A stretch of DNA of 64,000 bases, taken from Candidatus Limnocylindria bacterium (GTDB lineage: Bacteria; Chloroflexota; Limnocylindria; P2-11E). Shown here in pieces: positions 387-40,033 of the stretch; position 1 is the first letter of the stretch; every line of letters begins with the position of its first letter. Under the pieces are notes generated by a model. It did no database searches, had not been told where the DNA came from, and worked only from the letters and a program-made list of their open reading frames with translations. The stretch lies in contig DASYUC010000081.1 of the NCBI GenBank assembly GCA_036001645.1, forward strand, positions 21,325 to 85,324. The letters run 5' to 3'. Both the position numbers and the translations under genes were made by a program.

Positions 387-1318
387 TGGCGACGAGCACC
401 GCGTCCATCCGCGCACCGTCTGCGGCAGAGGCCCTCCTGCTGCGGCCGCCACGAAGCCTCTGGTCGAACGCCTGGTACAAGCTCCGGCACGATCGTTTGA
501 CGATGATCGCGTTCGCCGTTCTGCTTGCGCTCGCGCTACTCTCCGCCGCCGCGGATCTCTTCGCGGGCAACCTGTTCCACTACACGTTCGAGAAACAGGA
601 TCTGCTCAACACGTATCAGAAGCCCACGCTCGATCCGCCGGCCTTCCTCCTCGGCTCCGACGAGATCGGGCGCAGCCAGGTGGTGCGGCTTCTCTACGGC
701 GGCCGCGTCTCGCTCGCCGTCGGTTTCGTCGCCGCGCTCGTGAACCTCACCGTCGGCGTGACGATCGGCCTCACCGCGGGATACCTGCGCGGCCGGGTGG
801 ATGACCTGTTCACCTGGTTCGTCACCACTTTGAACTCGATCCCGACCATCTTCCTGCTGCTGATCTTCGCCGCGATCTGGGAGCCGGGCCCGATAACGCT
901 GACGATCGTGATCGGACTGCTGTTCTGGACGGGCATCTCGCTGTTCGTCCGCGGCCAGACCTTCGCTCTGCGCGAGCGCGAGTTCGTCGTGGCCGCGAAG
1001 ACGATCGGGGCACGGGACGCGCGCATCATGTTCAAGCACATCCTTCCCAACATCCTGCCGCTCATCTTCGTGCTGGCCGCGATCGACATCGGCGCGATCA
1101 TCCTGACCGAGTCGGCGCTCTCGTATCTGGGCCTCGGCATCCTTCCCCCGACGCCTTCGTGGGGCAACCTGCTCACCAACGCGACGACGTACTTCGTCCG
1201 CGCGTGGTGGCTCGTCGTTTCGCCGGGCGCGATGATCTTCCTCACGGTGCTCTGCCTGTACCTGATCGGCGACGGGCTGCGCGACGCGCTCGACCCGCGC
1301 CTCAAGACGGAGAAGTGA
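386..1318 (+). CDS. Dpp/Opp-type peptide ABC transporter permease (DppC-like)
   Basis: GTG at 386 shares its G with the upstream TAG stop. The N-terminus 'PPAFLLGSDEIGRSQVVRLLYGGRVSL' and C-terminus 'IGDGLRDALDPRLK' are family signatures. The ORF-track start at 227 would overlap the upstream gene. Confidence 0.85.
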   Translation: MATSTASIRAPSAAEALLLRPPRSLWSNAWYKLRHDRLTMIAFAVLLALALLSAAADLFAGNLFHYTFEKQDLLNTYQKPTLDPPAFLLGSDEIGRSQVVRLLYGGRVSLAVGFVAALVNLTVGVTIGLTAGYLRGRVDDLFTWFVTTLNSIPTIFLLLIFAAIWEPGPITLTIVIGLLFWTGISLFVRGQTFALREREFVVAAKTIGARDARIMFKHILPNILPLIFVLAAIDIGAIILTESALSYLGLGILPPTPSWGNLLTNATTYFVRAWWLVVSPGAMIFLTVLCLYLIGDGLRDALDPRLKTEK

Positions 1319-1335
1319 TCAACTAGGAGGCGCAC

Positions 1336-2958: not shown

Positions 2959-3004
2959 CGAACGCGACAGTTCGCACGGGCGTCGCTCGTCTACGCTGGA
3001 CCAG

Positions 3005-4903
3005 ATGATGGGAATGGGCGGCCCCGGCGGGATGCACGTCTTCATGTGGGGTCCCGGCGGGCGCGGAGAGGGCAGACGACCCTCGCTCTCCATGTATCGC
3101 CGCCTCCTGCAATACGTCGGACCCTACAAATGGAACCTCGTCTTCGCGGCCCTGCTGCTCGTCGTCTCCACCGCGCTCGGTCTGATCTGGCCGCAGGTCG
3201 TGCAGCGCGTCATCGATCTTGGTCTCCGCGACGAGGGATTCCTCGACCTTCTGATCGTCGGCCTCATCGTCGTGCTTCTGGTGCGCGCCGTGATCGATGG
3301 CATACGCCAGTTCGTGATGGCCTTCACCGGCGAGAGAGTGATCTTCGACCTTCGGATGGCCATCGTCCGTCATCTGCAGTCCCTTTCGCTGTCGTTCTTC
3401 AATCACCGCAAGACCGGCGAGCTGATGTCTCATGTGACGAGCGACGCGACGCTCGTCCACGGCGTCATCACGCAGACGATCATCCAGGTGCTGGGGCAGG
3501 TCCTCACACTGGCCGGCGGTGTGGCGGTGATCTTCCTGATGAACTGGCGGCTGGCCCTTCTCACGCTCGTCGTCGCGCCGCCGATCGCGGTGCTTGGCCA
3601 GCGCATGGGTCGGCGGATCCGCGACATCTCGCGGGAAGCGCAGGACGCGCAGGGCGAGGCGGTGGGCGTGCTCCAGGAGGCGATCGCGGAAGTGCGTGTG
3701 GTGCAAGCGTTCACGCGTGAGGAGTACGAGGCCGCGCGCTTCCACGAGAAGCTGTTGTTCACGTTCACCAAGACGATCGAGCGGGCGCGCATCGCCGCGA
3801 CGATGTTCCCGATCATCGGCTTCCTCGGTTTCTTCTCATCGATCGTCGTGCTCTGGTATGGCGGCCACGAGGTCGCGCGCGGCGAGATGACCGCGGGAAT
3901 GCTCGTCGCATTCCTCCTCTACATGAACATGGTCGCGGGCCCGGTCGGCATGCTCGCCAGCCAGTGGACGCAGGTGCAGCAGGCCTTCGGCGCGGCGGAC
4001 CGGATCTTCGCGCTGCTCGACACGGCGCCCGAGATCCAGGACCGGCCCGGCGCCGCGCCCCTGCCCTCGGTGCGCGGCGAGATCCGGTTCGAAGAGGTCG
4101 GCTTCCGGTACGGGAATGCCGGCGCCGAGCCAATGGTGCTCGACGGTGTCACGACGACGTTCCAGCCCGGCGAGACGACCGCGCTTGTCGGTCCTTCGGG
4201 GGCGGGAAAGACGACGCTGGTGAACCTCGTCGGCCGCTTCTACGACCCCGTGAGCGGTCGCATCGTCGTCGACGACCACGACCTGCGCAGTGTCACGATC
4301 CGCTCCCTGCGCGAGCAGATCGCGGTCGTCCCGCAGGAACCGATCCTCTTCGCGGACACGATCCGCGAGAACATCCGCTACGGCCGTCTTGACGCGACTG
4401 ACGCGGAGATCGACGAGGCGGCGCGCTCTGCGAACGCGACCGAGTTCATCGCGCGCCTTCCGAACGGTCTCGCGACGATCGTCGGCGAGCGCGGCGTGCG
4501 CCTCTCCGTCGGTCAGCGGCAGCGCGTCGCGATCGCGCGTGCGCTGCTGCGCGACGCGCCGATCCTCCTCCTCGACGAGGCGACGTCGTCGCTGGACAAC
4601 GAGAGCGAGTACCTCGTGCAGCAGGCGCTCGACCGGCTCATGCGCGGCCGGACCACGATCGTGATCGCGCACCGGCTGTCCACCGTCGAGCGCGCCGACC
4701 GCATCCTCGTGCTGGACCATGGACGCATCGTCGAGGAGGGCACGCACGGCGAGCTGCTCACTCTTGGTGGTCTCTACCACCGCCTCTACACGCGCCGCTT
4801 CGTCGACGTCGACACGGTCCGCACTGCCGAGGAGGGTGAGCCAGCTCCGATCATCGCTGAACTGCCGGCGGGAGAGCCGCGTCGCTTACGGGTGGTGCGC
4901 TAG
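3005..4903 (+). CDS. ABC transporter ATP-binding/permease fusion protein (ABCB/MsbA-like exporter half-transporter)
   Basis: A six-helix TMD is followed by an NBD with Walker A 'GPSGAGKTT', signature 'LSVGQRQR' and Walker B 'ILLLDEATS'. The start is taken at ATGATG 3005 (Gly/Met-rich N-terminus) because the ORF-track start 2621 overlaps the binding-protein gene. Confidence 0.85.
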   Translation: MMGMGGPGGMHVFMWGPGGRGEGRRPSLSMYRRLLQYVGPYKWNLVFAALLLVVSTALGLIWPQVVQRVIDLGLRDEGFLDLLIVGLIVVLLVRAVIDGIRQFVMAFTGERVIFDLRMAIVRHLQSLSLSFFNHRKTGELMSHVTSDATLVHGVITQTIIQVLGQVLTLAGGVAVIFLMNWRLALLTLVVAPPIAVLGQRMGRRIRDISREAQDAQGEAVGVLQEAIAEVRVVQAFTREEYEAARFHEKLLFTFTKTIERARIAATMFPIIGFLGFFSSIVVLWYGGHEVARGEMTAGMLVAFLLYMNMVAGPVGMLASQWTQVQQAFGAADRIFALLDTAPEIQDRPGAAPLPSVRGEIRFEEVGFRYGNAGAEPMVLDGVTTTFQPGETTALVGPSGAGKTTLVNLVGRFYDPVSGRIVVDDHDLRSVTIRSLREQIAVVPQEPILFADTIRENIRYGRLDATDAEIDEAARSANATEFIARLPNGLATIVGERGVRLSVGQRQRVAIARALLRDAPILLLDEATSSLDNESEYLVQQALDRLMRGRTTIVIAHRLSTVERADRILVLDHGRIVEEGTHGELLTLGGLYHRLYTRRFVDVDTVRTAEEGEPAPIIAELPAGEPRRLRVVR

Positions 4904-8245: not shown

Positions 8246-9511
8246 GTGGCAGTCACGGTAAAGACAGGCACCGAGGTGCGCTCGCCGCTCGACGTCACGA
8301 AGATCCGGGCGGACTTCCCGATCCTCTCGCGTACCGTGAACGGCAAGCCGGTCGTGTATTTGGACAACGCCGCGACGAGCCAGAAGCCGCGCCAGGTCAT
8401 CGATGCGATGAGCGCGGTGTTCGAGGAGCACAACGCGAACATCCACCGCGGCGTGTACGAGTTCAGCGAGACGACCACCGCCGCCTTCGAGGGCGCGCGG
8501 GCGAAGGTCGCACGCTTCATCGGCGCGCGCGACGAGCGCGAGGTGATCTTCGTGCGCAACGCGACCGAGGGTGTGAACCTCGTCGCGTACACCTGGGGCC
8601 GCGAGAACATCACGTCGGGGGACCGGATCATCTCCACCGTCCTCGAGCACCACTCTGACTTCGTGCCGTGGCAGCAGCTCGCGAAGGACGTCGGCGCGCA
8701 GATCGTCATGATCGACGTCGACGACGACGGCCGGCTGCGGCGCGACCAGCTGTCGGCCGAGCTGAAGCGTGGCGCGAAGCTGCTGGCGATCACGCACACG
8801 TCGAACGGCCTTGGGACGGTGAACCCGGTGAAGGAGATCGTCGCCGAGGCGCACGCCGCGGGCGCGACCGTCCTCGTCGACGCCGCGCAGGCCGTGCCGC
8901 ACACGCCGGTGGACGTGACTGACCTGGACTGCGACTTCCTCGTGTTCAGCGGCCACAAGATGCTGGCGCCGCCCGGCTCGGGCGGTGTCTGGGGCCGCAT
9001 CGGGCTTTTGGAGCGCATGCGGCCGTTCCTGTTCGGCGGCGACATGATCAGTCGCGTCACCGTCGAAAAGACCGAGTGGAACGAGCTGCCGTGGAAGTTC
9101 GAGGCGGGCACGTCCTCGTACGTGGACGCCATCGGGCTCGGCGCGGCCGTCGACTACCTGGGGGCGGTCGGCGTCGCGAAGATCCACGACCACGAGGTCT
9201 CGCTCGTGGGGTACCTGCTGCCGCGCCTCGCGGACATGCCGGGCATCACCGTGTACGGCCCGAAGACCCTGGACGACCGCGTCGGGGTCGTGTCCTTCAA
9301 CATCGAAGGCATCCACCCGCACGACGTCGCGACGATCTTCGACCGCGAGGGCGTGTGCGTGCGCGCGGGCCATCACTGCAACCAGCTGCTCATGACACGC
9401 CTCGGCGTCGCGGCGACGACGCGCGCCTCGTTCTACCTCTACAACACGACGGGCGAGTGCGATGCGCTGCTGGGCGCAATGGAGAAGGCCAAGAAAGTGT
9501 TCAAGGTGTGA
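8246..9511 (+). CDS. sufS: Cysteine desulfurase SufS (class II aminotransferase V)
   Basis: Start is GTG. 'YLDNAATSQKP', the PLP-lysine region 'FSGHKMLAPPGSG' and the catalytic Cys region 'VRAGHHCNQ' are present. Confidence 0.9.
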   Translation: MAVTVKTGTEVRSPLDVTKIRADFPILSRTVNGKPVVYLDNAATSQKPRQVIDAMSAVFEEHNANIHRGVYEFSETTTAAFEGARAKVARFIGARDEREVIFVRNATEGVNLVAYTWGRENITSGDRIISTVLEHHSDFVPWQQLAKDVGAQIVMIDVDDDGRLRRDQLSAELKRGAKLLAITHTSNGLGTVNPVKEIVAEAHAAGATVLVDAAQAVPHTPVDVTDLDCDFLVFSGHKMLAPPGSGGVWGRIGLLERMRPFLFGGDMISRVTVEKTEWNELPWKFEAGTSSYVDAIGLGAAVDYLGAVGVAKIHDHEVSLVGYLLPRLADMPGITVYGPKTLDDRVGVVSFNIEGIHPHDVATIFDREGVCVRAGHHCNQLLMTRLGVAATTRASFYLYNTTGECDALLGAMEKAKKVFKV

Positions 9512-9575
9512 TGGTCATGACTCGTTTCACTCGTCAAGACCAGTACGTGCACCTCCTGGCGGAGGTGCTGTAGCC

Positions 9576-9995
9576 GTGGATGACATGTACCGCGACTACA
9601 TCCTCGATCACTACAAGAACCCGCGGAACCAGGGCCAGCTCGAGGGCGCGACGAACACGTACAGCGACTCGAACCCGCTCTGCGGCGACGAGCTCAGCAT
9701 GGCGCTGCGCATCGCTGACGACCGCGTCGCGGATGTACGCTTCAGTGGCAAGGGCTGCGCGATCTCGCAGGCGTCCGCTTCGATCCTCACCGAGGAGATC
9801 AAGGGGAAGACGCTCGACGAGATCAAGGCCATCGATCGCGATCACATACTGGAGAACCTCGGCATCCCGATCAGCCCAGCTCGCATCAAGTGCGCGCTGC
9901 TCAGCCTCAAGACGCTGAAGGGTGCGGCGTGGGGTCTGCCGGCGTGGCCAGACGAGGACGAGGCGAAGGCGCGCTCGGCCGGACAGGGGAGATAG
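9576..9995 (+). CDS. sufU: SufU/IscU-like sulfur acceptor/scaffold
   Basis: '[14 protein letters not shown]', 'NPLCGD', 'GKGCAIS' and 'RIKCALL' are present. GTG 9576 has GGAGG about 10 nt upstream. ATG 9585 is an alternative start. Confidence 0.85.
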
Positions 9996-21793: not shown

Positions 21794-23428
21794 ATGAAGC
21801 TTGGCCTGCACCCGTTCTTGTTCCGCAGCACATCGTTGATGTTCGTGGCCGCGCTCGCGATATCGGCGTGCACGAGCCCGACGCAGACCGGGGCGACAGC
21901 TGCGCCGTCAGCGCAGGCGGGGCCGGTGTCGGGAGGGACCGTCACGATCCCCATCGGCGCGGATCCCACGCTCAATCCCTGGAGCCCGAACGCCTTCGTC
22001 GAGTCTCTCTTCATCAACCGTGCGATCTTCGAGGGCCTCACCAAGCCCGGCAAGGATCTCGCGCCGGCGCCGGATCTCGCGGAGAGCTGGACGACCGCGT
22101 CCGACGGGCTCAGCTGGACGTTCAAGCTCCGCAGCGGCGTGAAGTGGAGCGACGGCAAGCCGTTCTCGGCCGACGACGTCGCATTCACCTTCAACGACAT
22201 CGTGCTCAAGCCGGACCTCGGCGCGCAGAACCGCGCGAGCTACGCGGCCGTGAAGAGCGTCACCGTCGTCGACCCGAATACGGTGCGGTTCGACCTGACG
22301 CGCAAGTTCGCTGCCCTGGCTTCGTTCCTCGCGTACAACGCGGGTATCCTGCCGAAACATGTGCTCTCGGCCGATCCGCTGAAGACGACGTCGTTCAATA
22401 AGGGCGTTCCGGTAAGCACCGGTCCGTTCAAGGTCGAGAAGTACACGTCCGGCCAGAGCGTCTCGCTGGTGCGCAACGAGAACTACTTCGGTCCGAAGCC
22501 GTACCTCGAGAAGGTCGTCTTCACCGTCGTCCCCGACCCGAACACGCAGATCGCGCAGGCGCTTTCGGGAGACCTGCAGATCATGATCCTGGACAACAAG
22601 GCCGCGGTCGATCGCCTGAAGAGCGCGGCAGGTCTCGTTGTCGTGGCACGCCCGCTCGTGCAGTACTACTGGCTTTCGCTGAATCAGACCGACAGCCGCT
22701 TCACCGACGTGCGTGTCCGTCAGGCGTTCGTTCACGCCATCGACCGCGCGGCGATCATCAGATCGGTCGAGCTCGGCTACGGTTCGATCGCGAACAGCCC
22801 GATCACTCCCGCGCTCAAGGCGTATTACGACCCATCGTTGGCGTCGAAGTACCCGTACGATCCGGCGAAGGCCACGGAGCTGCTGAAGGCGGCCGGCTGG
22901 ACGCCAGGGCCGAACGGCGTGCTCCAGAAGGATGGCAACCCATTCCAGTTCACGATGGACGTCGGTCAGCGCGGCGTCCTCGAGCCCGTCAACGCGCTCA
23001 TCCAGCAGGATCTCAAGAAGGTCGGCGTGACCGTCGACCTGAACACGATGGAGTGGAACGCCTACATCCAGAAGGACGTGGTCCGTCGCGAGTACACGGC
23101 GACCGTCAACTGGTGGACCTACCCGAGCGACCCGGACGTGTTCCCGTACTACCACTCGAGCGCCGCGGGCAAGGGTTTCAACATCCCCGGCTACCAGGAC
23201 GCGAAGCTCGATGATCTGCTCGTGCAGGGGCAGAGCGCCGGCGATCTCGAGGCTCGGAAGGCCGTGTACAAGGAGCTTCAGCGGTACACGTCCGACGTCC
23301 TGCCGTATCTCTTCCTCTGGTACCCGCAGGAGATCGACGTGCTGAGCACGGCACTCCAGGGCGTGCCCGAGCTCGGCCTCCGCGATTCGATGCACTACAT
23401 CGGCGAATGGTGGTTGGCCAAGAAGTAA
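21794..23428 (+). CDS. ABC transporter substrate-binding lipoprotein, family 5 (peptide type)
   Basis: An SD 'GGGGAGG' lies upstream. Lipobox 'LAISAC' is present. 'DLAESWTTASDGLSWTFKLRSGVKWSDGKPF' is typical of the DppA/OppA family. Confidence 0.85.
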   Translation: MKLGLHPFLFRSTSLMFVAALAISACTSPTQTGATAAPSAQAGPVSGGTVTIPIGADPTLNPWSPNAFVESLFINRAIFEGLTKPGKDLAPAPDLAESWTTASDGLSWTFKLRSGVKWSDGKPFSADDVAFTFNDIVLKPDLGAQNRASYAAVKSVTVVDPNTVRFDLTRKFAALASFLAYNAGILPKHVLSADPLKTTSFNKGVPVSTGPFKVEKYTSGQSVSLVRNENYFGPKPYLEKVVFTVVPDPNTQIAQALSGDLQIMILDNKAAVDRLKSAAGLVVVARPLVQYYWLSLNQTDSRFTDVRVRQAFVHAIDRAAIIRSVELGYGSIANSPITPALKAYYDPSLASKYPYDPAKATELLKAAGWTPGPNGVLQKDGNPFQFTMDVGQRGVLEPVNALIQQDLKKVGVTVDLNTMEWNAYIQKDVVRREYTATVNWWTYPSDPDVFPYYHSSAAGKGFNIPGYQDAKLDDLLVQGQSAGDLEARKAVYKELQRYTSDVLPYLFLWYPQEIDVLSTALQGVPELGLRDSMHYIGEWWLAKK

Positions 23429-24369
23429 TTTCATTCCTTTTCCAGCGCATCGCGTCGGGGGCGCTCGTGATCGTTTTCGCGAGCGCCCTCACCTTCTTCT
23501 TCGTGAACCTCGCGCCTGGCGGCCCCGCGTCGGTCATGCGGTTCGACGTCACCGCCGAGCAGCGCGACGCCCTGATCAAACGCATGGGCCTCGACAAGCC
23601 GGTGACGCAGCGGTACGTCGAGTGGGTCACGGGGGCGGTGCGCGGCGACTTCGGCATATCGCTCCTGACGGATGAGCCCGTCACGCAACGCATCGGCGAA
23701 AGACTTCCGAACACCCTTACGCTCGCCGGCGCCGCTTTCCTGCTGTCGATAACGCTCGGGATCCCGATCGGCCTCATCCAGGCACTACGCCGCGGGAGCT
23801 CCCTCGATCATGTCCTGAGCTTTTTCAGCGCGATCGGACTCGCGGTGCCGGTCTTCTGGCTGGGCATCGTGCTGATCCTCATCTTCGCCGTCTCGCTCCG
23901 CGTACTCCCATCGGCGGGAGTGACCGGGATCGCGACGGACACGCTGCTCGACCGCGTGCAGCACCTCGTCCTGCCGGCGGTGGTGCTCGCCACGACGGTC
24001 CTCCCCACCATCGTCCGTTTCATGCGCTCCTCGGCGATCGAGGTCCTCCACGAGGACTACATCCGCACCGCCGAGTCGAAGGGTCTCGGGCCGCGCGTCG
24101 TCGTGGCGCGCCACGTCCTGCGGAACGCATTGATCCCCGTGGTCAGCGCGCTGGGGGCGCTCGTGCCGCGCCTGCTCGGCGGTGCGGTGGTCACGGAGGT
24201 GGTGTTCAGCTGGCCAGGTCTCGGCCGGCTCGCGCTCGAGGCCGCTCAGGGCCGGGACTACCCGCTCATCACCGGCCTCACGGTGGTGGCCGCGGCCGTG
24301 GCGGTCGGGACGACCCTGCTCGTGGATCTCGCGTACACCCGCATCGATCCGCGGGTACGACTCGCGTGA
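23407..24369 (+). CDS. Dpp/Opp-type ABC transporter permease (DppB-like)
   Basis: 'YIRTAESKGLGPRVVVARHVLRNALIPVV' is the EAA loop, and the C-terminus is 'LAYTRIDPRVR'. Confidence 0.85.
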   Translation: MVVGQEVISFLFQRIASGALVIVFASALTFFFVNLAPGGPASVMRFDVTAEQRDALIKRMGLDKPVTQRYVEWVTGAVRGDFGISLLTDEPVTQRIGERLPNTLTLAGAAFLLSITLGIPIGLIQALRRGSSLDHVLSFFSAIGLAVPVFWLGIVLILIFAVSLRVLPSAGVTGIATDTLLDRVQHLVLPAVVLATTVLPTIVRFMRSSAIEVLHEDYIRTAESKGLGPRVVVARHVLRNALIPVVSALGALVPRLLGGAVVTEVVFSWPGLGRLALEAAQGRDYPLITGLTVVAAAVAVGTTLLVDLAYTRIDPRVRLA

Positions 24370-25169
24370 CGCGTCTCGGAGGTGCAGCCCTCGCGGTGCT
24401 CGCCGCGATATCCCTTCTCGCGATCGTCGGCCCGTTGTTCTGGACGATCCCGCCCGAGGCGACCAATCCGGCGCAGACCCTCGCCGCGCCGAGTCTGGCG
24501 TACCCGCTCGGCACCGACGAGCTCGGGCGGGACGTCCTGAGTCGCCTGCTTCACGGGACCCGGGTCACTCTGCTCGTCGGCGTCGCCGCCATGCTCGCCG
24601 CGCTGTTGATCGGCGTCATCGTCGGCGCCGTCGCGGGCTTCAAGGGCGGATGGCCCGACACGGTGCTCATGCGCTTCACCGACGGGATGCTCGCCGTGCC
24701 GGCATTCTTCTTCATCCTCGTCGTGGTCACCGTGCTCGGCCCCGGCATTGGGACACTGGTCCTGGTCATCGGCGCGTTGTCGTGGATGCCGGTCGCGCGG
24801 GTCGTCTACGGCGAAACCCTCCGCTGGAAGACGGCCGAGTTCGTCGTGGCAGCCGTGTCGCTCGGAGTGCCCGCGCCTCGCCTGCTCGTCCGCCACATCC
24901 TTCCGCAGGCGATCCCCTCACTGGTCGTTTCGGCCACGCTGGGAGTCGCGTTCGCGATCCTGACCGAGTCGGCCCTCAGCTACCTCAGCTTCGGCGTCCA
25001 GGCGCCGCTGCCCTCGCTCGGGAACATGCTTCAGCGGGCGCAGATCTACGTCTTCACGGCTCCCGTGCTCGCTATTTACCCCGGCCTCGTGATCACGGCC
25101 GTCGTGCTCGCGTTCAACTTCCTGGGAGATGGTCTACGCGACGCGCTGGACCCCAGGCGCCGTCGCTAG
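24366..25169 (+). CDS. Dpp/Opp-type ABC transporter permease (DppC-like)
   Basis: GTGA overlap with the upstream gene. 'YPLGTDELGRDVLSRLLHGTRVTL' and 'LGDGLRDALDPRRR' are present. Confidence 0.85.
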   Translation: MTRLGGAALAVLAAISLLAIVGPLFWTIPPEATNPAQTLAAPSLAYPLGTDELGRDVLSRLLHGTRVTLLVGVAAMLAALLIGVIVGAVAGFKGGWPDTVLMRFTDGMLAVPAFFFILVVVTVLGPGIGTLVLVIGALSWMPVARVVYGETLRWKTAEFVVAAVSLGVPAPRLLVRHILPQAIPSLVVSATLGVAFAILTESALSYLSFGVQAPLPSLGNMLQRAQIYVFTAPVLAIYPGLVITAVVLAFNFLGDGLRDALDPRRRR

Positions 25170-25200
25170 TATCGGCGGGCGACACGCAGGGGAGGACGAG

Positions 25201-26421
25201 ATGAAGACAGCCGACGTCGGTAAGGCCACGCGCTACTCCGGTTATCGCAGCTTCCAGTACCTCGAACCGGGCAGCGACTATCGCGAATTCGAGCTCGCGA
25301 AAGAGCTCGACCGCGTGCCCTCGCGCAAGGTCGAGGTCAGCACCGCGCAGGAGGAGCGGGTCCAGCGTCTGCTCGACGAGCACCTCGCGGTGTCGCTCCA
25401 CGACCACTGCTTTGTCGTTCCGGCGGACTTCGCGGAACTGGCCGACTACCGCCGGCAGGGACGCGACTGGACGGGATACGCCGGCATGGCGCGGTCCGGG
25501 CTTGATGCGGTATTCGACTGCCTGATGGACGGCACCGCGACGATCACGTCGAAGGCCGGCTGGAAGTGGGACGACATCGTCTACGACCTCGGGATGCGCC
25601 TGTCAGACATCCTGCACCAGGACTTCGTCGTGCGTGGAGAGACTCTGGACGACATCCGCCGCGCCAAGGAGAACGGGCAGATCGCGTTCATCGCCTCGCT
25701 CGAAGCCGCCACGGCCATCGAGAACGAGGTCGATCGTCTCGACATCCTGTATGGCCTCGGCATCCGGTCTTCCGGCATCGCGTACAGCGAAGCGAACACG
25801 CTGGGCAGCGGACTGAAAGAAGCCAAGGACGGCGGTCTCACCGAGTTCGGACGCCAGGCCGTGCGCCGAATGAACAAGCTCGGGATCGCGATCGACGTCT
25901 CGCACTCGGGTGACCAGACATCGCTGGACACGATCGAGGCAAGCGAGAAACCGATCTTCATCACTCACGCCGGAGCGCGCGGGCTCTGGAACACGAAGCG
26001 GATGAAGCCCGATGAGGTGCTGAAAGCGATGGCCGCGAAGGGCGGCGTCATCGGTATCGAGGCCGCACCGCACACGACGCTCACGAAGAAGCATCCCAAG
26101 CACTCGATCGAGAGCTTCATGGAGCACTTCGAGTACTGCGCGGATCTCATCGGGATCGACCATGTCGCGTTCGGACCAGACACCCTGTTCGGCGATCACG
26201 TCGGGCTGCACCACTACTTCGCGAAGCAGCTGTCGATCAAGGCCGCGCACGGCGCGCAGGCCTTCGAGGAGGTCGCGTTCGTCGATGGGATCGAGAACCC
26301 GGCCGAGGCGTTCCCGAACATCGTGCGCTGGATGGTCAAGCACGACTACTCCGACGGCGACATCGGCAAGGCCATTGGCGGCAACGTCATGCGTGTGTTG
26401 GAAGAGGTCTGGTTCCGGTAG
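25201..26421 (+). CDS. Membrane-dipeptidase family (peptidase M19) protein
   Basis: GGAGGA lies 5 nt upstream of ATG 25201. 'AVSLHDHC', 'IAFIASLEAA', 'GIAIDVSHSGDQT', 'FITHAGAR' and 'IDHVAFGPD' follow the M19 metal-ligand pattern. Confidence 0.85.
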   Translation: MKTADVGKATRYSGYRSFQYLEPGSDYREFELAKELDRVPSRKVEVSTAQEERVQRLLDEHLAVSLHDHCFVVPADFAELADYRRQGRDWTGYAGMARSGLDAVFDCLMDGTATITSKAGWKWDDIVYDLGMRLSDILHQDFVVRGETLDDIRRAKENGQIAFIASLEAATAIENEVDRLDILYGLGIRSSGIAYSEANTLGSGLKEAKDGGLTEFGRQAVRRMNKLGIAIDVSHSGDQTSLDTIEASEKPIFITHAGARGLWNTKRMKPDEVLKAMAAKGGVIGIEAAPHTTLTKKHPKHSIESFMEHFEYCADLIGIDHVAFGPDTLFGDHVGLHHYFAKQLSIKAAHGAQAFEEVAFVDGIENPAEAFPNIVRWMVKHDYSDGDIGKAIGGNVMRVLEEVWFR

Positions 26422-32209: not shown

Positions 32210-32527
32210 TCAGTCGAGCTGGAGGGCGAACGTCAGGGCGTCGTGAAGCTCCGTGAGCTTGACCTGGGACAGACGGCCGACTCGACGGATCAGGCGCGCC
32301 TTCGCGATCGTCGTGAGGTCGTCGCAGTTAGCAACGCACGCTATGGGCAGGCCATCGCGTTCGTCGAGTTCGACCTCGGACGCCAGCCCGCGAGCAGTTC
32401 GTGTGATCGCCGCGACGGTTGTCTGCGTGCGCGCGCCTCGCGAGTCGTCGCGAGATACGACCAGCACGGGGCGCCTCTTGTCGGCGGCAGCCCACCAGAT
32501 CTCGCCGTGCTCGGTTCCCCTAGGCAT
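32210..32527 (-). CDS. Type II toxin, PemK/MazF family endoribonuclease
   Basis: 'GEIWWAA...RRPVLVVSRD' and 'VAAITRT...EVELDERDGLPIACVANCDDLTTI' are typical MazF/PemK. ATG 32527 overlaps the antitoxin stop by 8 nt. Confidence 0.8.
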   Translation of the reverse strand: MPRGTEHGEIWWAAADKRRPVLVVSRDDSRGARTQTTVAAITRTARGLASEVELDERDGLPIACVANCDDLTTIAKARLIRRVGRLSQVKLTELHDALTFALQLD

Positions 32528-32795
32528 CGCCCGGCGCCTCCGGCCATTCCTCATCTGACGCGGCGTCCTCGATCCCGATCTTCTCCATCGCGAGGAAGTC
32601 GGGGTCGTCGCCGTCCGGGATCCGTCGGTATCCGTCGAAGTACGCGTCGATCTTCTCTTGCATCGTCTTCCGCTTTAGGTAATCGGCTGCAGCTTCCTGT
32701 ATCCAGGTGCTGCGGTCCTTTTTCGACCGCTTGCGCGCCCGCTCGATCTGGCGAAAGAGGTCGTCGGGGAGGCTTATGGCCGTCTTCTTGGTCAC
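32520..32795 (-). CDS. Ribbon-helix-helix (CopG/MazE-like) antitoxin
   Basis: GTG 32795 is preceded by GGAGGA. 'KKTAISLPDDLFRQIERARKR...RSTWIQEAAADYLKR' is an RHH motif, and the C-terminus is acidic. Confidence 0.7.
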   Translation of the reverse strand: MTKKTAISLPDDLFRQIERARKRSKKDRSTWIQEAAADYLKRKTMQEKIDAYFDGYRRIPDGDDPDFLAMEKIGIEDAASDEEWPEAPGDA

Positions 32796-33711: not shown

Positions 33712-35151
33712 CTAGGGTCCGTCGCCCCGCCCGAGCTCGAGCGTGACCGCGGTCACGACATCGCCCGCTTTCTGCAGCCGAGGCGTTTCGATGAGCGCGA
33801 TCGTGTCGCGCGGCGTGTGCAGGATGATGTCGCTCCAGAGGATGATCGCGGACGGCACGCCGCGCTTCGCGAACGTCGTCTGGTCGCTGCCGCCGCCGCG
33901 GATCGACTGGAACGGGATGCCGAGGCGCGCCGCCGCCGCGCGGATCCGGTCTACCAGGGTCGCGCTCTCGTCCGACGCCTCGAGCGTGTTGCCGCAACAG
34001 CCGATGACGTCAAGGTTGAGATACGCGACGAGGCTCTCCACCCGGCCGGGCGACACCGCCATGCGTCCGGCGTAGGCCTCCGAGCCGAGCAGCCCCTCCT
34101 CCTCGCCGGCCCAGGCGACGAACACGATCGACCGCTTGAGCTCCGCGCGCTTTGTGACGAGCGCTCGCGCGACCTCGATCGTGACCGCTGGGCCCGAGGC
34201 GTTGTCGTTCGCGGCGCTGAAGACGGTGCCGTCGGGATCCGTGCCGACACCGTCGAGGTGGCCACCGACGAGGACCGCGCGCTTCGACAGCTCCAGATCG
34301 CTCCCACGCAGCAGGCCGATCACGTTCACGCCCTCGACCTCGTGGACCGGGGTGAGTGGCAGCGCCATGCGTACGGTCACGTCCGTCTCGAACGCCGGTG
34401 ACGGCGCCGCGGGGTTCGACCGCCGCGCGCGGACCGCGCTCTGCACCTGCGCGACGGTCTTCGCCGCTGGCGCGAGGAGCTCGTTCGCCACGCTCTCGGT
34501 GATCACGAGCACCGGGATCGTGTCCGCGAAGAACCGCGGGATGAATGAGTAGCGGATCGAGGCGTCTCCGATGACGAGGACGCCGACCGCTCCTTCGGCG
34601 AAGGACGCCTCGACCGCGCTCCCCGCGATCGGACCGGTCACGAGCGCGATGCGACCGCGCGCCGTCACGCCGGCGAAGTCATCCTGCCCGTTGCCCTTCG
34701 CCGCACCGCCGACCACGACGACCGGCGCCTCGGCCGATCCATTACCCGATCGGCCACCCACGCTCTCCGTGAAGTCGACCCGGTGTTTCCACGACTTCGC
34801 GTCCGCACCGGTGCGCGTGAGCGTTGGTGTCGCGGTGAGATCCACGATCGGCATCGGGAACCGCTGGAAATACGAGCCCCCGAGCGGCTCGAGGCCGACC
34901 GCCTTGAACTGATCGGCGACGTACTGCGCCGCGTCGAGATAGCCCGGCGACCCGCTGTACCGGCCGCCGCGTGCGGGGTCCGCGAGATAGGCGATGTGCT
35001 CTCGTGCTTTCGGCCCGTCAAAGACGGCCGTGCCCGCAACGGCCACCGCGGTCGGCGACGGGCTGCGCGATGCGCTCGGCGTCGGTGACGCGATGACCGC
35101 CGTCGGACCGCACGACGCGACGAGCAGCGCGGTCAGGAGGAGGCGCCTCAT
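33712..35151 (-). CDS. M28 family metallo-aminopeptidase lipoprotein with PA domain
   Basis: Lipobox 'LLVASC' is present. M28 ligand contexts are 'GGHLDGVG', 'ANDNASGPAV', 'WAGEEEGLLGSEAY', 'LNLDVIG' and 'GGSDQTTF'. ATGA overlap with the upstream fusion gene. Confidence 0.8.
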   Translation of the reverse strand: MRRLLLTALLVASCGPTAVIASPTPSASRSPSPTAVAVAGTAVFDGPKAREHIAYLADPARGGRYSGSPGYLDAAQYVADQFKAVGLEPLGGSYFQRFPMPIVDLTATPTLTRTGADAKSWKHRVDFTESVGGRSGNGSAEAPVVVVGGAAKGNGQDDFAGVTARGRIALVTGPIAGSAVEASFAEGAVGVLVIGDASIRYSFIPRFFADTIPVLVITESVANELLAPAAKTVAQVQSAVRARRSNPAAPSPAFETDVTVRMALPLTPVHEVEGVNVIGLLRGSDLELSKRAVLVGGHLDGVGTDPDGTVFSAANDNASGPAVTIEVARALVTKRAELKRSIVFVAWAGEEEGLLGSEAYAGRMAVSPGRVESLVAYLNLDVIGCCGNTLEASDESATLVDRIRAAAARLGIPFQSIRGGGSDQTTFAKRGVPSAIILWSDIILHTPRDTIALIETPRLQKAGDVVTAVTLELGRGDGP

Positions 35152-37520
35152 CCGGTCGCCGCCATCTCGAGCACCGACTGGAGCACGACCTCACCGGACG
35201 CGCGCAGGCGGGCGGGGTCGACCGTTGCCGGCGTGTCGCCGACGGTGTGGAACGGGCCGAGGTCGGTCCCGGAGATCATCACCGCGGGCACGCGCCGCCG
35301 CAGGAAAGTGAAGTGGTCGCTGCCGCCGATGGCGGGTGTGTACTCGAGGCCGTAACCGAGGCGCTCGGCTGCGGACTTGACCCGCTGGTGCAGTGCGAAG
35401 TTCTCGTCGGAGGCGGCCAGCGCGCCGCAACACCCGTTCATGTCGAGATTGATGAACGCGACGATGTTGTCCGCGCGATACGGGGTCGTGACCGCGTTCG
35501 CCAAGAATGCTTCCGAGCCGATGAGCCCCTCCTCCTCGCCCGCGAACGCGACGAAGATCACGGAGTTCTTCAGCATCGCCCTCTTCGCGGCGAGGACGCG
35601 CGCGACCTCGATCGTGACCGCCGGACCGGAGGCGTTGTCGTTCGCCGCCGGATAGACCGTCCCGTTGGGGTCGGTGCCGACGCCGTCGAGGTGCCCTCCG
35701 ATGACGACGAATTTCGCCGCGCGTTCGGGATCGCTCCCGCGCAGCATGCCCACGACGTTCATCGTGCGGACCGGTTGGACGGGCCCGAACGACACCTCGA
35801 TATGGACGCGCGTCGGCGTGTCGAACGAGAGCGGCTCCGGAGCGCTGCGGACCAGGCTCGGCCGTTGGTCCGCGCGACGGCGCCGCTCCTCCAGGGTCTT
35901 ACGGAGGTCGGCGATGCGCTTGCCTGAGGGCGCGATGAGCTCGTCGGCCACGGCTTCGCTCACGGTGATCACCGGGACGGTGTCCCTTTCGAAGAACGCG
36001 GAGTACGAGCCGCGAATGATCCCGCGGTCTGGCGCGGCAACGAAGATGACCGCCTTCGCGCCCGACCGGATCGCCGCGTCGATCGGATCGCCCTGCGTCG
36101 GCCCGGCGATCAACACGATGTTCCCCTCGGGATGCGTGCCCTGGTAGTCGCTGTACTCCTGCGTGCGGATCCCACCACCCACATACACGATGTTGCCCTC
36201 GGCGGTGCCGCCGCCGGCGCGACCGCCAACGCGCTCGCTGAAGTCCACGCGCGGCTGATACCGCTTCGGATCGTCGTCGACGCGCTCGAAGACCGGCATC
36301 GCGCTGAGCTTGACGATGTTCGTTCCCCAGTTCTGGAAGTAGGTCCCGTCGCTGCCGATGGGTTCGAGTCCGATGGACTTGAACTGATCGGCGACGTAGC
36401 GCGCGGACTCGTTGTATCCGGCCGATCCGGTGTACCGTCCGGCGCGCGCGGGATCCGCCAGCCAGTCGACGTGCCCTCGCGCACGCGCCGCGTCGAATTC
36501 GCGCGCGACGGCGACGTAGCTGCCCGCGGGTCCGAGGTACGGACTCGCCACGCGGAACGCGACGAAGATCGCGACGATCGCCATCGCGGTGCGCAGTGAG
36601 AGGAGCTTGCCGAGCGCGACCGGCGCGCGCTCGAAGAACGTCCGCAGTCCGTGTCCGATGAGATTGAAGCCGAGGATCGCACTTGCGAACGCTACGGCCG
36701 GCACGAGGGCGATCCAGGCGGCGCGGTAGATCTCGAACTTGCCCTGCGCGAGGATGGCGCCCCACTCGGTCGTCGCGAAGATGAACTCAGTTCCGCCGCC
36801 ACGACCGGTCACGTCGGTCGATACGTTCTGCCCGCCTCCGACGACGATGCCGAGGAATCCCAGCTCGCCGAGCACGAGGAGGATCGCGCTCGCCTCCAGC
36901 GCGGCGGCGACCGCGAGCATGGGAAGCAGGTTCGGCAGCACGTGGCGCGCGAACACGGCGAACTCGGATAGGCCGAGTGAGCGCGCCGCCTCGAGGAACG
37001 GACGTCCGCGGAGCGCGACGACAGCGGACCGCGTCGCGCGACCGAATCCCCACCAGCCCGTGATCGCGAGCGCCGCGGCGAATGCGCTGATGCCCGAGCG
37101 GATGTCGAACGCGAAGATCCAGAGCATCGCGAAGAGCACGGTCGGGAACGCGCCGAACGCGTCGATGAGCGCGGACACGGCGCGGTCGAGCGACGAGCCG
37201 GCGAACCAACCCGCGAGCGCACCCAGGGCGGTCCCGACGACGAGGCGCACGGCGAGGACGACGAACGCGATCGTGAGCGTTGCGCGTGCTCCGTACATGA
37301 CGCCCGCCCACAGGTCCCGGCCGCTCCGGTCCGACCCGAGCGGGTAGCCGTAGGTCCCTGGGTCGTACGGCGCGAGGACGGAACGCGGGCCGTCGATGAT
37401 CAGTGTCGTGCCCTTGAGGGGATCGACATCCGTGAGGAGCGGCGCCGCCAGCCCGACGAAGACCCAGCCACCGATGATCGCCGCGCCGAAGATGAGCTGC
37501 CAGGTGAGCGCGCGCCGCAT
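35148..37520 (-). CDS. Fusion protein: Dpp/Opp-type ABC permease (DppC-like) + extra TM helix + PA-domain M28 metallopeptidase
   Basis: The N-terminal half has 'YPLGSDRSGRDLWAGVMYGARATL' and 'NLIGHGLRTFFERAP', the normal permease C-terminus. A hydrophobic helix 'LRTAMAIVAIFVAFRVA' follows. The rest is a full M28 domain ('GGHLDGVG', 'ANDNASGPAV', 'FAGEEEGLIGSEAF', 'INLDMNG', 'GGSDHFTF'). It is a single uninterrupted 790-codon ORF. Confidence 0.8.
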   Translation of the reverse strand: MRRALTWQLIFGAAIIGGWVFVGLAAPLLTDVDPLKGTTLIIDGPRSVLAPYDPGTYGYPLGSDRSGRDLWAGVMYGARATLTIAFVVLAVRLVVGTALGALAGWFAGSSLDRAVSALIDAFGAFPTVLFAMLWIFAFDIRSGISAFAAALAITGWWGFGRATRSAVVALRGRPFLEAARSLGLSEFAVFARHVLPNLLPMLAVAAALEASAILLVLGELGFLGIVVGGGQNVSTDVTGRGGGTEFIFATTEWGAILAQGKFEIYRAAWIALVPAVAFASAILGFNLIGHGLRTFFERAPVALGKLLSLRTAMAIVAIFVAFRVASPYLGPAGSYVAVAREFDAARARGHVDWLADPARAGRYTGSAGYNESARYVADQFKSIGLEPIGSDGTYFQNWGTNIVKLSAMPVFERVDDDPKRYQPRVDFSERVGGRAGGGTAEGNIVYVGGGIRTQEYSDYQGTHPEGNIVLIAGPTQGDPIDAAIRSGAKAVIFVAAPDRGIIRGSYSAFFERDTVPVITVSEAVADELIAPSGKRIADLRKTLEERRRRADQRPSLVRSAPEPLSFDTPTRVHIEVSFGPVQPVRTMNVVGMLRGSDPERAAKFVVIGGHLDGVGTDPNGTVYPAANDNASGPAVTIEVARVLAAKRAMLKNSVIFVAFAGEEEGLIGSEAFLANAVTTPYRADNIVAFINLDMNGCCGALAASDENFALHQRVKSAAERLGYGLEYTPAIGGSDHFTFLRRRVPAVMISGTDLGPFHTVGDTPATVDPARLRASGEVVLQSVLEMAATG

Positions 37521-38443
37521 CAGGATGCCGCTCCGGTCGACGCGTGCACTAGACGGGAGGCGGCCGCGTCGAGCGCGAACCGAACGATCGCGATCGTCAC
37601 GACCAACGCACCGAGCAACGTGCCCGCGGTCGCGGCGTCGAAGCGCTGGATCGCCTGGAGCAGTGAGAAGCCGAGGCCGGGCCAGGAGAAGAACACCTCG
37701 ACGACCGGCAGCGTGGAGAGTCCGATCGAAAGTGCCGCCGCGATCGCACCGAGGATCGGCACGAGGGCGTTGCGAAGCGCGTGGCGGCCGATGACCACGC
37801 GCTCGAGCAGGCCCTTGGACCGTGCGGTCCGCACATAGTCGGCGCCGAGCTCCTCGTCGACGGCAACGAACGCGAAGTTCGCGATCTGGGCGAATGGGCG
37901 CGCGGCGAGGACGAGCGTCGGCAGGATGAGATGGTCGTCGATCCCGAAGCCGAAGCTCGGCCAGAGCCGGACGTTGTAGCGGCGCACCATCTCGGCCGAC
38001 AGGAGGATCAGGAGGATCGCGAGCAGGAAGGACGGCAGCGAGATCACCGCCATCGTGCTGCCCAGGAGCGCGGCCCGCAGGCGTGCGCTGCGTGTGGCAG
38101 CGGCGACCACGCCGACGGCGACGCCGAGCACCGCGGCGAGCGTCACCGCGAGGCCGACGAGCAGCATGCTCTTCGGGTACGCGTCGAGGAGCACCTCGCC
38201 CATCGAGCGGCGCCGGCCGCCGAGGATTGACGTCGTCGTCGCTTCGCCGAGCGACCCCTGGAACAGGCTCGAGAAGTAGTCCTGGGTGCCCTCCCAGGCC
38301 TGCTGGAGGATGTCGGCGATCGGCGCGTGATCGAAGCGCGTGCGTGCCGCGACGAGCGCGATCTGCGCGAGCACGACGATGAGGACGAACGTGAAGATGA
38401 CGAGCAGGACGCGCGTGAGGACCGCGACGGCAGCGCGACTCAA
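37520..38443 (-). CDS. Dpp/Opp-type ABC transporter permease (DppB-like)
   Basis: 'YVRTARSKGLLERVVIGRHALRNALVPIL' is the EAA loop. Start is taken at TTG 38443 because the longer ORF-track start would overlap the divergent metG. The stop shares one nt with the fusion-gene ATG (TGATG). Confidence 0.75.
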   Translation of the reverse strand: MSRAAVAVLTRVLLVIFTFVLIVVLAQIALVAARTRFDHAPIADILQQAWEGTQDYFSSLFQGSLGEATTTSILGGRRRSMGEVLLDAYPKSMLLVGLAVTLAAVLGVAVGVVAAATRSARLRAALLGSTMAVISLPSFLLAILLILLSAEMVRRYNVRLWPSFGFGIDDHLILPTLVLAARPFAQIANFAFVAVDEELGADYVRTARSKGLLERVVIGRHALRNALVPILGAIAAALSIGLSTLPVVEVFFSWPGLGFSLLQAIQRFDAATAGTLLGALVVTIAIVRFALDAAASRLVHASTGAAS

Positions 38444-38470
38444 CGTGTGTCGACGAGGGGCATGTCGACC

Positions 38471-38476
38471 TAGAAT
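38471..38476 (+). promoter_or_regulatory. Candidate -10 hexamer TAGAAT in the 48-bp divergent gap upstream of metG
   Basis: This is an AT-rich hexamer 15 nt upstream of ATG 38492 in an otherwise GC-rich context. No SD is evident. Confidence 0.25.
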
Positions 38477-38491
38477 ACCGAGCAAATTCCG

Positions 38492-40033
38492 ATGAAGTTC
38501 TACGTCACGACCGCCATTGCATACGTCAACGCCCGGCCCGGACTTCACCATGCGTATGAGTTCACCGGGACTGACGCACTTGCCCGTTTTCACCGGCAAC
38601 GCGGGGACGACGTCTACTTCCTGACGGGCACGGACGAGAACGCGACGCGCAACGAGCAGGCGGCGAAGGAGCAAGGGATCCCCACACGTCAGCTCGTCGA
38701 TAGATACGCGGCCGAGTTCCGGCAGATGGCCGACCTCTGGCACATCTCATATGACCGTTTCATCCGCACGGTCGACCCCGATCACATCGTCGGTGTCCAG
38801 GAATTCGTTCGCCGCTGGATCGCGAACGACGATGTGTACCTCTCGACGTATGAGGGCTGGTATTGCACCGGGTGCGAGGCGTTCTATGAAGAGAGTGACC
38901 TCGTAAATGGTCAGTGCCCGATCCACCCGACCCGCCAGATCCAGCGCCTCAAGGAGGAGAACTACTTCTTCCGCCTCAGCAAGTACGAGCAGCGCCTTAA
39001 AGACCTGTACCACGAGCGCCCTGACTTCTGCGTGCCAGAGGTACGACGCAACGAAGTCCTGGGCTGGCTGGAACGCGGCCTTAAGGACGTTAGCGTGTCG
39101 CGGCGCAACCTCACCTGGGGGATCCCGTTCCCGGACAAGCCTGGGCACACGGTGTACGTCTGGTTCGACGCTCTCATCAACTACGCGACCGGTGTGGGGT
39201 TCGGCACCGACGAGAAGAAGTTCAAGAAGTGGTGGCCGGCCGATCTGCACGTCATCGGACTGGACATCACGCGTTTTCATTGTCTGTTCTGGCCGGCGAT
39301 GCTGATGTCCGCGGGTCTCGAGCTACCGCGGCAGGTCTACGCCCACGGCTTCCTTCACTACGCCGGCGAGGGTCGGCTCTCGCGATCGAGCGGCAACATG
39401 ATCGATCCCATCGCCGCGGCGAATGAGTGGGGGAGTGATGCGCTTCGCTACCTGTTATTGCGCGAGGCGCCGTTCGCCAAGGATTCGCCCATCTCGCCGG
39501 ACCTCCTCGACCTTCGCTTCAACGCCGATCTCGCCAACGGCCTCGGCAACCTCGTCTCGCGCGCGACGAAGATGGTCGAGCTGTATTGCGAGGCTCGTGT
39601 GCCGCCGCCCGGCAAAGAAGGTCCATCCGAGAAGGCGCTGCGCGAAACTGCCGAGCGCGCCCTTCGCGCGCACGACGAGTACGCCGCCCGGCTCGACTTC
39701 TCCGAGGCGCTCGCCGCGATCTTCGCTGTCGTCGAAGAGGCGAACAAGCACTTCCAGCGCACGCAGCCGTGGCAGGCGGTGAAGGAGCCGCCACGGAAGG
39801 GCGAGGTCGAGGCGTCGTTGTACGCGGGGCTCGAGGCGGTGCGCCTCGTCGCGTATCTCCTGTTCCCGTATATGCCGACGATCAGTCCCCGTATCGCCGA
39901 GGTGCTGGGCGTCGAATCGCCTGCCTCGGCGAAATGGGAGGCTGTCGCGCGCTGGGGTCTGCTCGAATCGGGAAAGCAGATCCGCACCGCGCCGTCGCTC
40001 TTCCCGCGGCTCGAGCGAGCGAAGACCGCCTGA
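38492..40033 (+). CDS. metG: Methionyl-tRNA synthetase (short form, no C-terminal tRNA-binding domain)
   Basis: 'FYVTTAIAYVNARPGLHHAYE', 'FLTGTDE', the zinc knuckle 'YCTGCE...CPIH', 'NYFFRLSKY' and 'VWFDALINY' are present. The gene is followed by tatD, as in many genomes. Its signature motifs are atypical (see finding). Confidence 0.9.
   Translation: MKFYVTTAIAYVNARPGLHHAYEFTGTDALARFHRQRGDDVYFLTGTDENATRNEQAAKEQGIPTRQLVDRYAAEFRQMADLWHISYDRFIRTVDPDHIVGVQEFVRRWIANDDVYLSTYEGWYCTGCEAFYEESDLVNGQCPIHPTRQIQRLKEENYFFRLSKYEQRLKDLYHERPDFCVPEVRRNEVLGWLERGLKDVSVSRRNLTWGIPFPDKPGHTVYVWFDALINYATGVGFGTDEKKFKKWWPADLHVIGLDITRFHCLFWPAMLMSAGLELPRQVYAHGFLHYAGEGRLSRSSGNMIDPIAAANEWGSDALRYLLLREAPFAKDSPISPDLLDLRFNADLANGLGNLVSRATKMVELYCEARVPPPGKEGPSEKALRETAERALRAHDEYAARLDFSEALAAIFAVVEEANKHFQRTQPWQAVKEPPRKGEVEASLYAGLEAVRLVAYLLFPYMPTISPRIAEVLGVESPASAKWEAVARWGLLESGKQIRTAPSLFPRLERAKTA

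Follow-up and report, generated by a model that had tools for sequence, protein, structure and literature searches.

A PA-domain M28 aminopeptidase fused to an Opp-type permease subunit in Chloroflexota, and its possible role in coupling peptide trimming to uptake

What does a peptidase do when it is covalently joined to the membrane subunit of an ATP-binding cassette (ABC) importer? The question is raised by a locus of a Candidatus Limnocylindria bacterium, lying in a contig stretch of 64,000 nucleotides that was analysed as a whole (hereafter, the window), in which one gene encodes an OppC/DppC-type permease followed by an M28-family metallopeptidase. This gene (C-M28) is the middle one of three on the minus strand, between an OppB/DppB-type permease gene (B) and a gene for a second M28 peptidase, predicted to be a lipoprotein (Table 1). 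As stated in an earlier note made from the sequence alone, the three genes are linked by overlapping stop and start codons, which read in the DNA as TGATG at the B/C-M28 junction (37522-37518) and as ATGA at the C-M28/lipoprotein junction (35151-35148), and the middle gene is one uninterrupted open reading frame (ORF) of 790 codons; the three genes are translationally coupled. Our preferred reading, to which we assign a probability of roughly one half, is that they specify a complex at the cell surface in which trimming by aminopeptidases is coupled to uptake through an Opp-type translocator that is served by ATPases in trans.

The fusion is widely conserved. At least 120 protein clusters (90% identity), drawn from NCBI, JGI, ENA and Logan assemblies, share 62-90% identity with the window protein, each as one ORF of 777-799 aa, and both Pfam domains were detected in all but one of the 120; those that carry a name come from Candidatus Limnocylindria or from Chloroflexota metagenome-assembled genomes (MAGs). 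An exhaustive HMMER search against 50%-identity representatives, 1.84 billion in number, returned 525 proteins at E <= 1e-30, and among the best 150 of these many align with the query over its full length, without a break, at 30-38% identity. The domain architecture, which the earlier note had proposed to look for in databases, was followed with Pfam and domain mapping and takes the form of C+M28, B+C+M28 and B+C+M28+M28 chains in related Chloroflexota MAGs. The loci from a genome-contig scan, whose 600 listed stretches are a sample and not a census, and the named proteins with both domains all belong to Chloroflexota MAGs (Limnocylindria, Anaerolineae/Anaerolineales, Thermoflexales and uncultured "Chloroflexia"), with the exception of one protein (P0054, 71% identity) on a 7.5-kb contig binned as Methylomirabilota, which we take to be mis-binned. 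The permease-M28 fusion is a large Chloroflexota family, the members of which are labelled by annotation pipelines as "M28 family peptidase" or "peptide/nickel transport system permease". Because the natural fusions occur in several combinations and are deeply conserved, the B, C and M28 domains would be expected to work together (Rosetta-stone evidence). We found no description of the fusion in the literature; a study of proteolysis in Thermoflexus mentions M28F lipoproteins as well as Opp transporters, and no fusion (PMC8129789). The component families are known and their combination is uncharacterised, as had been proposed, but the architecture is not rare, and it extends to more elaborate fusions than the one first noticed.

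Both permease proteins fall into the Opp/Dpp/Nik group by NCBIfam and pass the Pfam cut-off for BPD_transp_1 (26.4 bits), with 76.3 bits for B and 67.4 bits for residues 96-298 of C. Residues 51-295 of C align with residues 71-293 of the 300 in solved E. coli DppC/OppC chains, nearly to their C-terminal end, which bears out the earlier description of this part as a DppC-type permease; the tail quoted for it, LIGHGLRTFFERAP, is present at positions 287-300. The EAA coupling loop of C (EAARSLG...HVLPN, residues 177-197, bases 36930-36992) retains E177, G183, P196 and N197 invariantly across family clades that share about 30% identity, while B has six hydrophobic segments by hydropathy and an EAA-type loop (YVRTARSKGL...RHALRN) starting at residue 205. 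Since the coupling loops of both permeases are kept across the whole family, ATPase partners are to be expected. NCBIfam scores are far under the respective cut-offs for both subunits. For B, Opp2B is the top match, followed by SapB, Opp3B and GsiC; for C, the scores are 147.8 bits for Opp2C (cut-off 300), 134 for Opp4C, 124 for NikC, 118 for Opp1C and 82 for CntC, with the peptide-type OppC, DppC and Opp3C models at about 85-101 bits (OppC 85 against a cut-off of 433, DppC 89 against 483). In an equivalog test covering OppC, DppC, NikC, GsiD and CntC, C was below every curated cut-off, and for this reason no substrate is assigned to B/C.

The one additional hydrophobic helix that had been noticed behind the permease part is present, the string quoted for it lying at residues 309-325, where the hydropathy peak and a helix in an AlphaFold2 (AF2) model overlap. 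This seventh transmembrane helix (TM7) follows a short, basic cytoplasmic stretch, GHGLRTFFERAPVALGK, with three Lys and Arg residues. In the AF2 model of the 790-aa protein, computed with 50 homologues (mean predicted local distance difference test score 81, predicted template modelling score 0.65), the ectodomain begins almost directly after TM7; the linker is very short, and a juxtamembrane motif (P331, A339, F342 and A347) is conserved. The C-termini of DppC and OppC are cytoplasmic, as in published structures. Because the permease part aligns with these proteins up to their ends and is followed by one further helix, the M28 domain would lie outside the cell, as the earlier note had reasoned. 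A stand-alone homologue (P0122) aligns through its residues 18-496 with residues 299-788 of the fused protein and has its N-terminal hydrophobic anchor opposite TM7, which suggests that TM7 goes back to the signal anchor of a peptidase once encoded by a separate gene downstream.

The ectodomain scores 123 bits against Peptidase_M28 (residues 588-782; cut-off 21.3) and the lipoprotein 113.5 bits. The PA domain inserted at about residues 442-528 reaches 18.5 bits in Pfam, under the cut-off of 23.9; a Foldseek comparison of the AF2 model with the Protein Data Bank (PDB), however, gave the PA-containing aminopeptidases 2EK8 (from Aneurinibacillus AM-1), BSAP (from B. subtilis) and PaAP (8ACK, from P. 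aeruginosa) as best matches (target-normalised TM-scores of 0.75, 0.70 and 0.60), followed by transferrin receptor (TfR) and glutamate carboxypeptidase II (GCPII), with 471-511 columns aligned to PA-M28 structures. As modelled, the ectodomain is thus of the PA-domain M28 type despite its sub-threshold Pfam score. The ligand and catalytic set is complete (H610, D612, D628, E662, E663, D693 and H758), so that the description of a full PA-domain M28 peptidase with all its metal ligands holds, the PA part through its structure match. Residues 588-775 align with the Vibrio aminopeptidase, and sequence matches in the PDB also include AAP, 2EK8 and YwaD. The lipoprotein likewise has a full HDDEE-D-H set; its best PDB matches are YwaD/BSAP (6HC6) and 2EK8, with the motifs H.D, NDNxSG, EE, NLD and HTP aligned. 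In the lineage of the window, the operon therefore encodes two apparently active enzymes, judging by their residues. These relatives share the fold and the H-D-D-EE-D-H motifs with the window proteins; YwaD, 2EK8 and PaAP are soluble and secreted, whereas the copies in the window are part of a transporter subunit and a lipoprotein, both with a lineage-specific Cys-Cys pair beside an Asp ligand.

That the two M28 proteins are paralogues, as had been claimed from stretches beginning LADPAR (25 of 34 positions identical), is upheld by 46% identity over 457 aa; they are mutual closest relatives, at 46-53% as against 33-36% to other clades, and may reflect a recent duplication or gene conversion. 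The N-terminus of the lipoprotein, MRRLLLTALLVAS-C14, contains a putative lipobox (L-V-A-S-C14) that fits the pattern [LVI][ASTVI][GAS]C by eye, and its orthologues P0122 and P0124 have an uncleaved-looking hydrophobic anchor in its place. The vicinal cysteines of the GCCG motif, also pointed out earlier, are indeed present in both proteins. All 120 fused homologues from Limnocylindria keep the pair unchanged (signature HDDEEDCCH), as do lipoprotein-type relatives, and it is absent from all other clades; it may serve as a redox switch or as an extra metal ligand.

Taken together as a mechanism, the operon would supply the membrane and surface parts of a PepT/Opp-Dpp-Nik type I importer equipped with aminopeptidases of its own. 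The usual heterodimeric translocator would be made up of B and the first 300 residues of C, and its intact EAA loops would dock OppD/F-like ATPases encoded elsewhere and probably shared with other Opp-type systems. TM7 would take the chain back across the membrane, and the very short linker would hold an active, YwaD/BSAP-like di-zinc aminopeptidase beside the opening of the permease on the outer face. Its paralogue, the predicted lipoprotein, would be anchored in the same leaflet and cooperate with the fused peptidase, possibly as a heterodimer. Environmental peptides would then be cut from their N-terminus at the transporter and the products imported before they diffuse off, a coupling that could be useful for a cell with little or no periplasm. 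In favour of this reading stand the translational coupling of the three genes, their shared order beside metG at related loci, the natural single-chain fusions, the invariant EAA-loop residues, the complete M28 sites and the topology evidence; the closest solved M28 relatives are secreted aminopeptidases of broad specificity. Moreover, both the use of peptides and ATPases encoded in trans seem usual in this genome, since the two other Opp-type clusters of the window are also without ATPase genes and one of them includes an M19 dipeptidase.

Several results weigh against the trimming-uptake reading. The top NCBIfam matches of the permeases are of the nickel/cobalt type and not OppC/DppC, so that peptides are a presumed substrate. 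The paralogue is not an obligatory member of the operon, as one Limnocylindria locus of 63% identity (L086, 10001-12947) has B and C-M28 beside metG and no lipoprotein gene downstream. Energisation is assumed, because no ATPase partner was found in the operon, in the 64-kb window or in the flanks of 10 kb to either side of related loci. The same holds for an SBP-dependent cycle (SBP, substrate-binding protein), as no SBP gene was found in the module in the window or at 18 related loci of about 30-90% identity, the context of which was inspected up to 10 kb each side. Finally, most fused M28 domains of the wider family are without the catalytic base and the second zinc site, and trimming is therefore not the family-wide role.

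The gene context separates the absence of an ATPase from that of an SBP. At the 18 related loci no adjacent OppD/F-type ATPase gene was found, and the ABC ATPases of the window, located as ORFs with Walker A and LSGGQ motifs, are confined to an exporter (2621-4903, ABC_membrane and ABC_tran) and a SufC-like gene near 7551. The earlier note was right that the operon contains neither a binding protein nor an ATPase, but only one of these absences is particular to it. As ATPase genes are lacking from both other Opp-type clusters of the window too, the absence of an ATPase is not special to the fusion operon, and the ATPases are probably encoded elsewhere and shared among Opp-type systems. Each of these clusters carries SBP_bac_5, in contrast, so that the absence of an SBP is special to the fusion operon. 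The arrangement B/C-M28/M28, divergent from metG, is kept at three loci of 69-71% identity (L001, L002 and L085). In Anaerolineae, a giant multi-M28 gene lies downstream at two loci (L004 and L012), the fusion is a single gene with unrelated neighbours at three (L082, L087 and L088), and two tandem copies are found at another (L084). At L009, SBP_bac_5 is present in a separate SBP-B-C cluster 6 kb off. At L083, a B+C+M28+M28 gene is immediately preceded, in the same orientation, by a flavin reductase gene and a gene for a 245-aa ABC_tran protein (8637-9975); this ABC_tran gene, two genes upstream, is the sole ATPase near any examined family member and is too short for a typical OppD/F.

In order to compare catalytic residues across the family, M28 domains were mapped onto the ligand positions of the window protein with a profile built from intact members. 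The seven positions are intact in 120 of 120 Limnocylindria clusters. Outside this group, of the 50%-identity representatives whose M28 domain is joined to a permease and aligns in full, P0121 and P0123 alone keep the set, and about 40 have degenerated. A conserved pattern of loss marks the Anaerolineae B+C+M28 clade (n = 117), in which H610 (to Y, 113/117), E662 (to G, 113/117) and D693 (to S, 107/117) are replaced and D628 (117/117), E663 (108/117) and H758 (109/117) are kept. From the Aeromonas aminopeptidase structure, we take the former three to be the Zn2 ligands and general base and the latter three to be the Zn1 triad. Other degenerate clades also lose H758 (signatures of the type QDDEE.R.GR). 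Four-domain chains combine both states, the permease-proximal M28 being degenerate and the distal one intact (in P0125, YDDGEES..H and then HDDEEYD..H). Since the fused M28 is usually degenerate, the job that the family as a whole conserves for its tethered domain is not hydrolysis. Of the two possibilities raised in the earlier note, coupled trimming and uptake or a peptidase domain in place of the usual binding partner, this favours the second, a docking or receptor function, for the family; the lineage of the window keeps an apparently active enzyme.

The main alternative, a tentative and less likely reading, follows from here: the tethered M28 domain, alone or with its paralogue, could be a substrate receptor that docks on B/C and triggers the ATPase cycle in place of a Venus-flytrap SBP. 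The ligand would be held in the former active-site pocket, with the domain catalytic in Limnocylindria and a pseudo-enzyme with a putative single zinc triad in Anaerolineae. Type I ABC importers are thought to need a Venus-flytrap binding protein, free or tethered, and the lack of one in the modules examined, against its presence in both other Opp-type clusters of the window, is consistent with such a replacement. So are the conservation of the Anaerolineae B+C+M28 ectodomain, non-catalytic yet with its putative Zn1 triad kept, the shortness of the linker behind TM7 together with the conserved juxtamembrane motif, and the finding that the Pfam families OppC_N and BPD_transp_1_N match the other permeases of the window and not the B/C-M28 pair. 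In addition, the Anaerolineae fusion genes frequently stand alone as monocistronic units without a partner peptidase, which points to a conserved non-enzymatic, transporter-linked job of the domain. Weighing against a receptor are the full catalytic site in the lineage of the window, where a bound peptide would be cut and not passed on intact, and the fact that unlinked SBP genes are common in bacteria; furthermore, we know of no type I importer that uses a receptor lacking the SBP fold. A precedent for tethering as such is given by GlnPQ and OpuA, type I importers whose membrane domain likewise carries a covalently joined extracytoplasmic domain, kept beside the translocation pathway (PMC8025302, PMC11065425). 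Their tethered domain has the SBP fold, whereas that of the window protein is a PA-domain M28 joined through an added C-terminal helix and gave no match to an SBP family in Pfam or in the structure search, so that the likeness is one of topology only.

A further comparison is offered by TfR and GCPII, which are among the structural matches and have the type II topology predicted for TM7 and the ectodomain (N-terminus inside, one helix, PA-M28 outside). Unlike the window fusion they are eukaryotic, possess a helical dimerisation domain and have no link with a transporter. As an M28 protein that has lost catalysis and been reused as a receptor, TfR offers a parallel to the degenerate domains fused to permeases in the Anaerolineae clade.

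It is also conceivable, though in our view unlikely, that the module is not mainly a transporter and that ATP-driven movements of B/C would act through TM7 as an on/off switch for surface peptidases, comparable to FtsEX. FtsEX, with its partners EnvC, PcsB or RipC, similarly ties an ABC-type membrane complex functionally to an extracytoplasmic hydrolase, but it has a type VII and not a type I fold, its partners are not covalently fused and its targets are hydrolases of the cell wall, which leaves an analogy only. The rigid, short junction of TM7 and ectodomain in the AF2 model, the module's lack of an SBP and the frequent large multi-peptidase partners (1732 aa at L004, 2116 aa at L012; P0128 and P0143) would agree with such a switch, whereas many family members have only a dead ectodomain with no peptidase partner nearby. 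Moreover, mechanotransmission by BPD_transp_1 domains is not known to us, and the fold of FtsX differs from theirs. Less probable still is the import of metals or metal chelates (of the Ni, Co or Zn type) with the M28-derived domain as a metal-binding receptor. The nickel/cobalt character of the top NCBIfam matches (Opp2C, at 148 bits, with NikC, Opp1C and CntC for C; Opp2B for B) and the putative zinc triad kept by one degenerate clade speak for it, but those scores are far below family cut-offs of 300-480 bits, the oligopeptide-type Opp4C model scores nearly as high, other degenerate clades lose H758 too, and in the lineage of the window the peptidase site is complete and accompanied by a second, apparently active peptidase. 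The weakest alternative, an assembly or sequencing artefact such as the missed stop or frameshift at the permease-peptidase junction against which the earlier note had cautioned, is refuted, as the 120 clusters and distant clades at 30-38% identity all keep a continuous ORF.

Compared with the known Opp/Dpp/Nik importers (DppBCDF and OppBCDF of E. coli, DppABCD and OppABCD of M. tuberculosis; 8Z1V, 8Z21, 8WD9, 8J5Q), the proteins of the window share the BPD_transp_1 fold, the EAA loops and the PLGSDxxGRD loop of C. They differ from them in the lack of SBP and ATPase genes in the operon, in the seventh helix and 460-residue ectodomain of C and in the sub-cut-off NCBIfam scores. The family is of interest because it is large and deeply conserved, keeps its ATPase-coupling loops, has no linked SBP in the modules examined and, without exception, bears an ectodomain of peptidase fold on its permease. 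If the receptor reading were true, this would be the first type I importer receptor without an SBP fold, a natural enzyme turned transport receptor in which hydrolysis is coupled directly to substrate hand-over, and the loading rule for type I importers would change. If the domain only trims peptides at the pore, the family would still provide a clear physical coupling of extracellular hydrolysis and uptake, with a bearing on organic-nitrogen scavenging by abundant soil and freshwater Chloroflexota. The natural single chains of about 1170 aa would be convenient structural targets in either case.

Table 1. Positions of the fusion operon, its parts and related features in the window, and sizes of related architectures
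Feature	Position	Strand	Size	Remarks
OppB/DppB-type permease gene (B)	37520..38443	-	307 aa	start TTG 38443
OppC/DppC-type permease + TM7 + PA-domain M28 gene (C-M28)	35148..37520	-	790 codons	no internal stop
C permease domain, residues 1-300	36621..37520	-		alignment to solved OppC 8Z21 and DppC 8Z1V
Predicted extra helix TM7, residues ~303-328	36537..36614	-		hydropathy peak 306-324; AF2 helix 309-328
Predicted PA-domain M28 aminopeptidase ectodomain, residues 331-790	35151..36530	-		Pfam, PDB sequence matches, Foldseek
Vicinal Cys697-Cys698 of fused protein	35427..35432	-		four residues after Asp693 ligand; sole cysteines of the 790 aa
Paralogous PA-type M28 gene (predicted lipoprotein)	33712..35151	-	479 aa
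Vicinal Cys385-Cys386 of lipoprotein	33994-33999	-		sole cysteines besides putative lipobox Cys14
Divergent intergenic region, permease operon/metG (38492..40033, +)	38444..38491		48 bp	presumed promoter region
Second Opp-type cluster	21794-26421	+		SBP_bac_5, B, C, M19 membrane dipeptidase overlapping the end of C; no ATPase genes
Third Opp-type cluster	3-2958	+		unusual order: B (cut by window edge), C, SBP_bac_5; then ABC exporter 2621-4903, not OppD/F
C+M28 architecture			~780-850 aa
B+C+M28 single chain			~1160-1340 aa	P0136, P0160; well over 100 clusters
B+C+M28+M28 single chain			~1660-1715 aa	P0125; P0345 (1697 aa); whole operon as one polypeptide
Giant partner proteins			1600-2100 aa	intact M28, Peptidase_MA-like region and second, degenerate M28

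The giant proteins listed in Table 1 come from genes lying downstream of the fusion in MAGs of Anaerolineales and "Chloroflexia" (L004, 11110-16305; L012, 7691-14038), and P0128 and P0143 are proteins of the M28+MA+M28 type. Their second M28 domain has the signature HDDQE.DGGN, in which the catalytic Glu and the last His are lost, and some have an N-terminal DUF418 membrane domain. The second Opp-type cluster of the window is another instance, in the same genome, of a peptidase set in a peptide-transporter operon.

The 5' boundary of the operon was set from the DNA. The maximal ORF of B (37520..38743, minus strand) would overlap the divergent metG, and TTG at 38443 is the sole plausible in-frame start outside that gene; the orthologues of B at L001 and L085 are likewise called at 307 aa. 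No sigma-70 consensus was found in the 48-bp intergenic region, and a scan for promoters and terminators was uninformative. The operon is flanked by metG, which is divergent, and by a convergent cupin gene.

Between this cupin gene and a DinB gene lies a gene for a PemK/MazF-type toxin (32210-32554, minus strand; Pfam, 60 bits), preceded upstream by a small ORF (about 32551-32790, minus strand) with no Pfam match whose product resembles a ribbon-helix-helix antitoxin by eye. Different genes occupy the position of the toxin at L001 and L085, and the pair may be a lineage-specific insertion adjoining the operon. Further along, the segment 28092-31934 (plus strand) encodes a circularly permuted ATP-grasp protein (a weak match), a GCS2 glutamate-cysteine-ligase-like protein and a DinB_2 protein, and its synteny near the operon is kept at L001 and L085.

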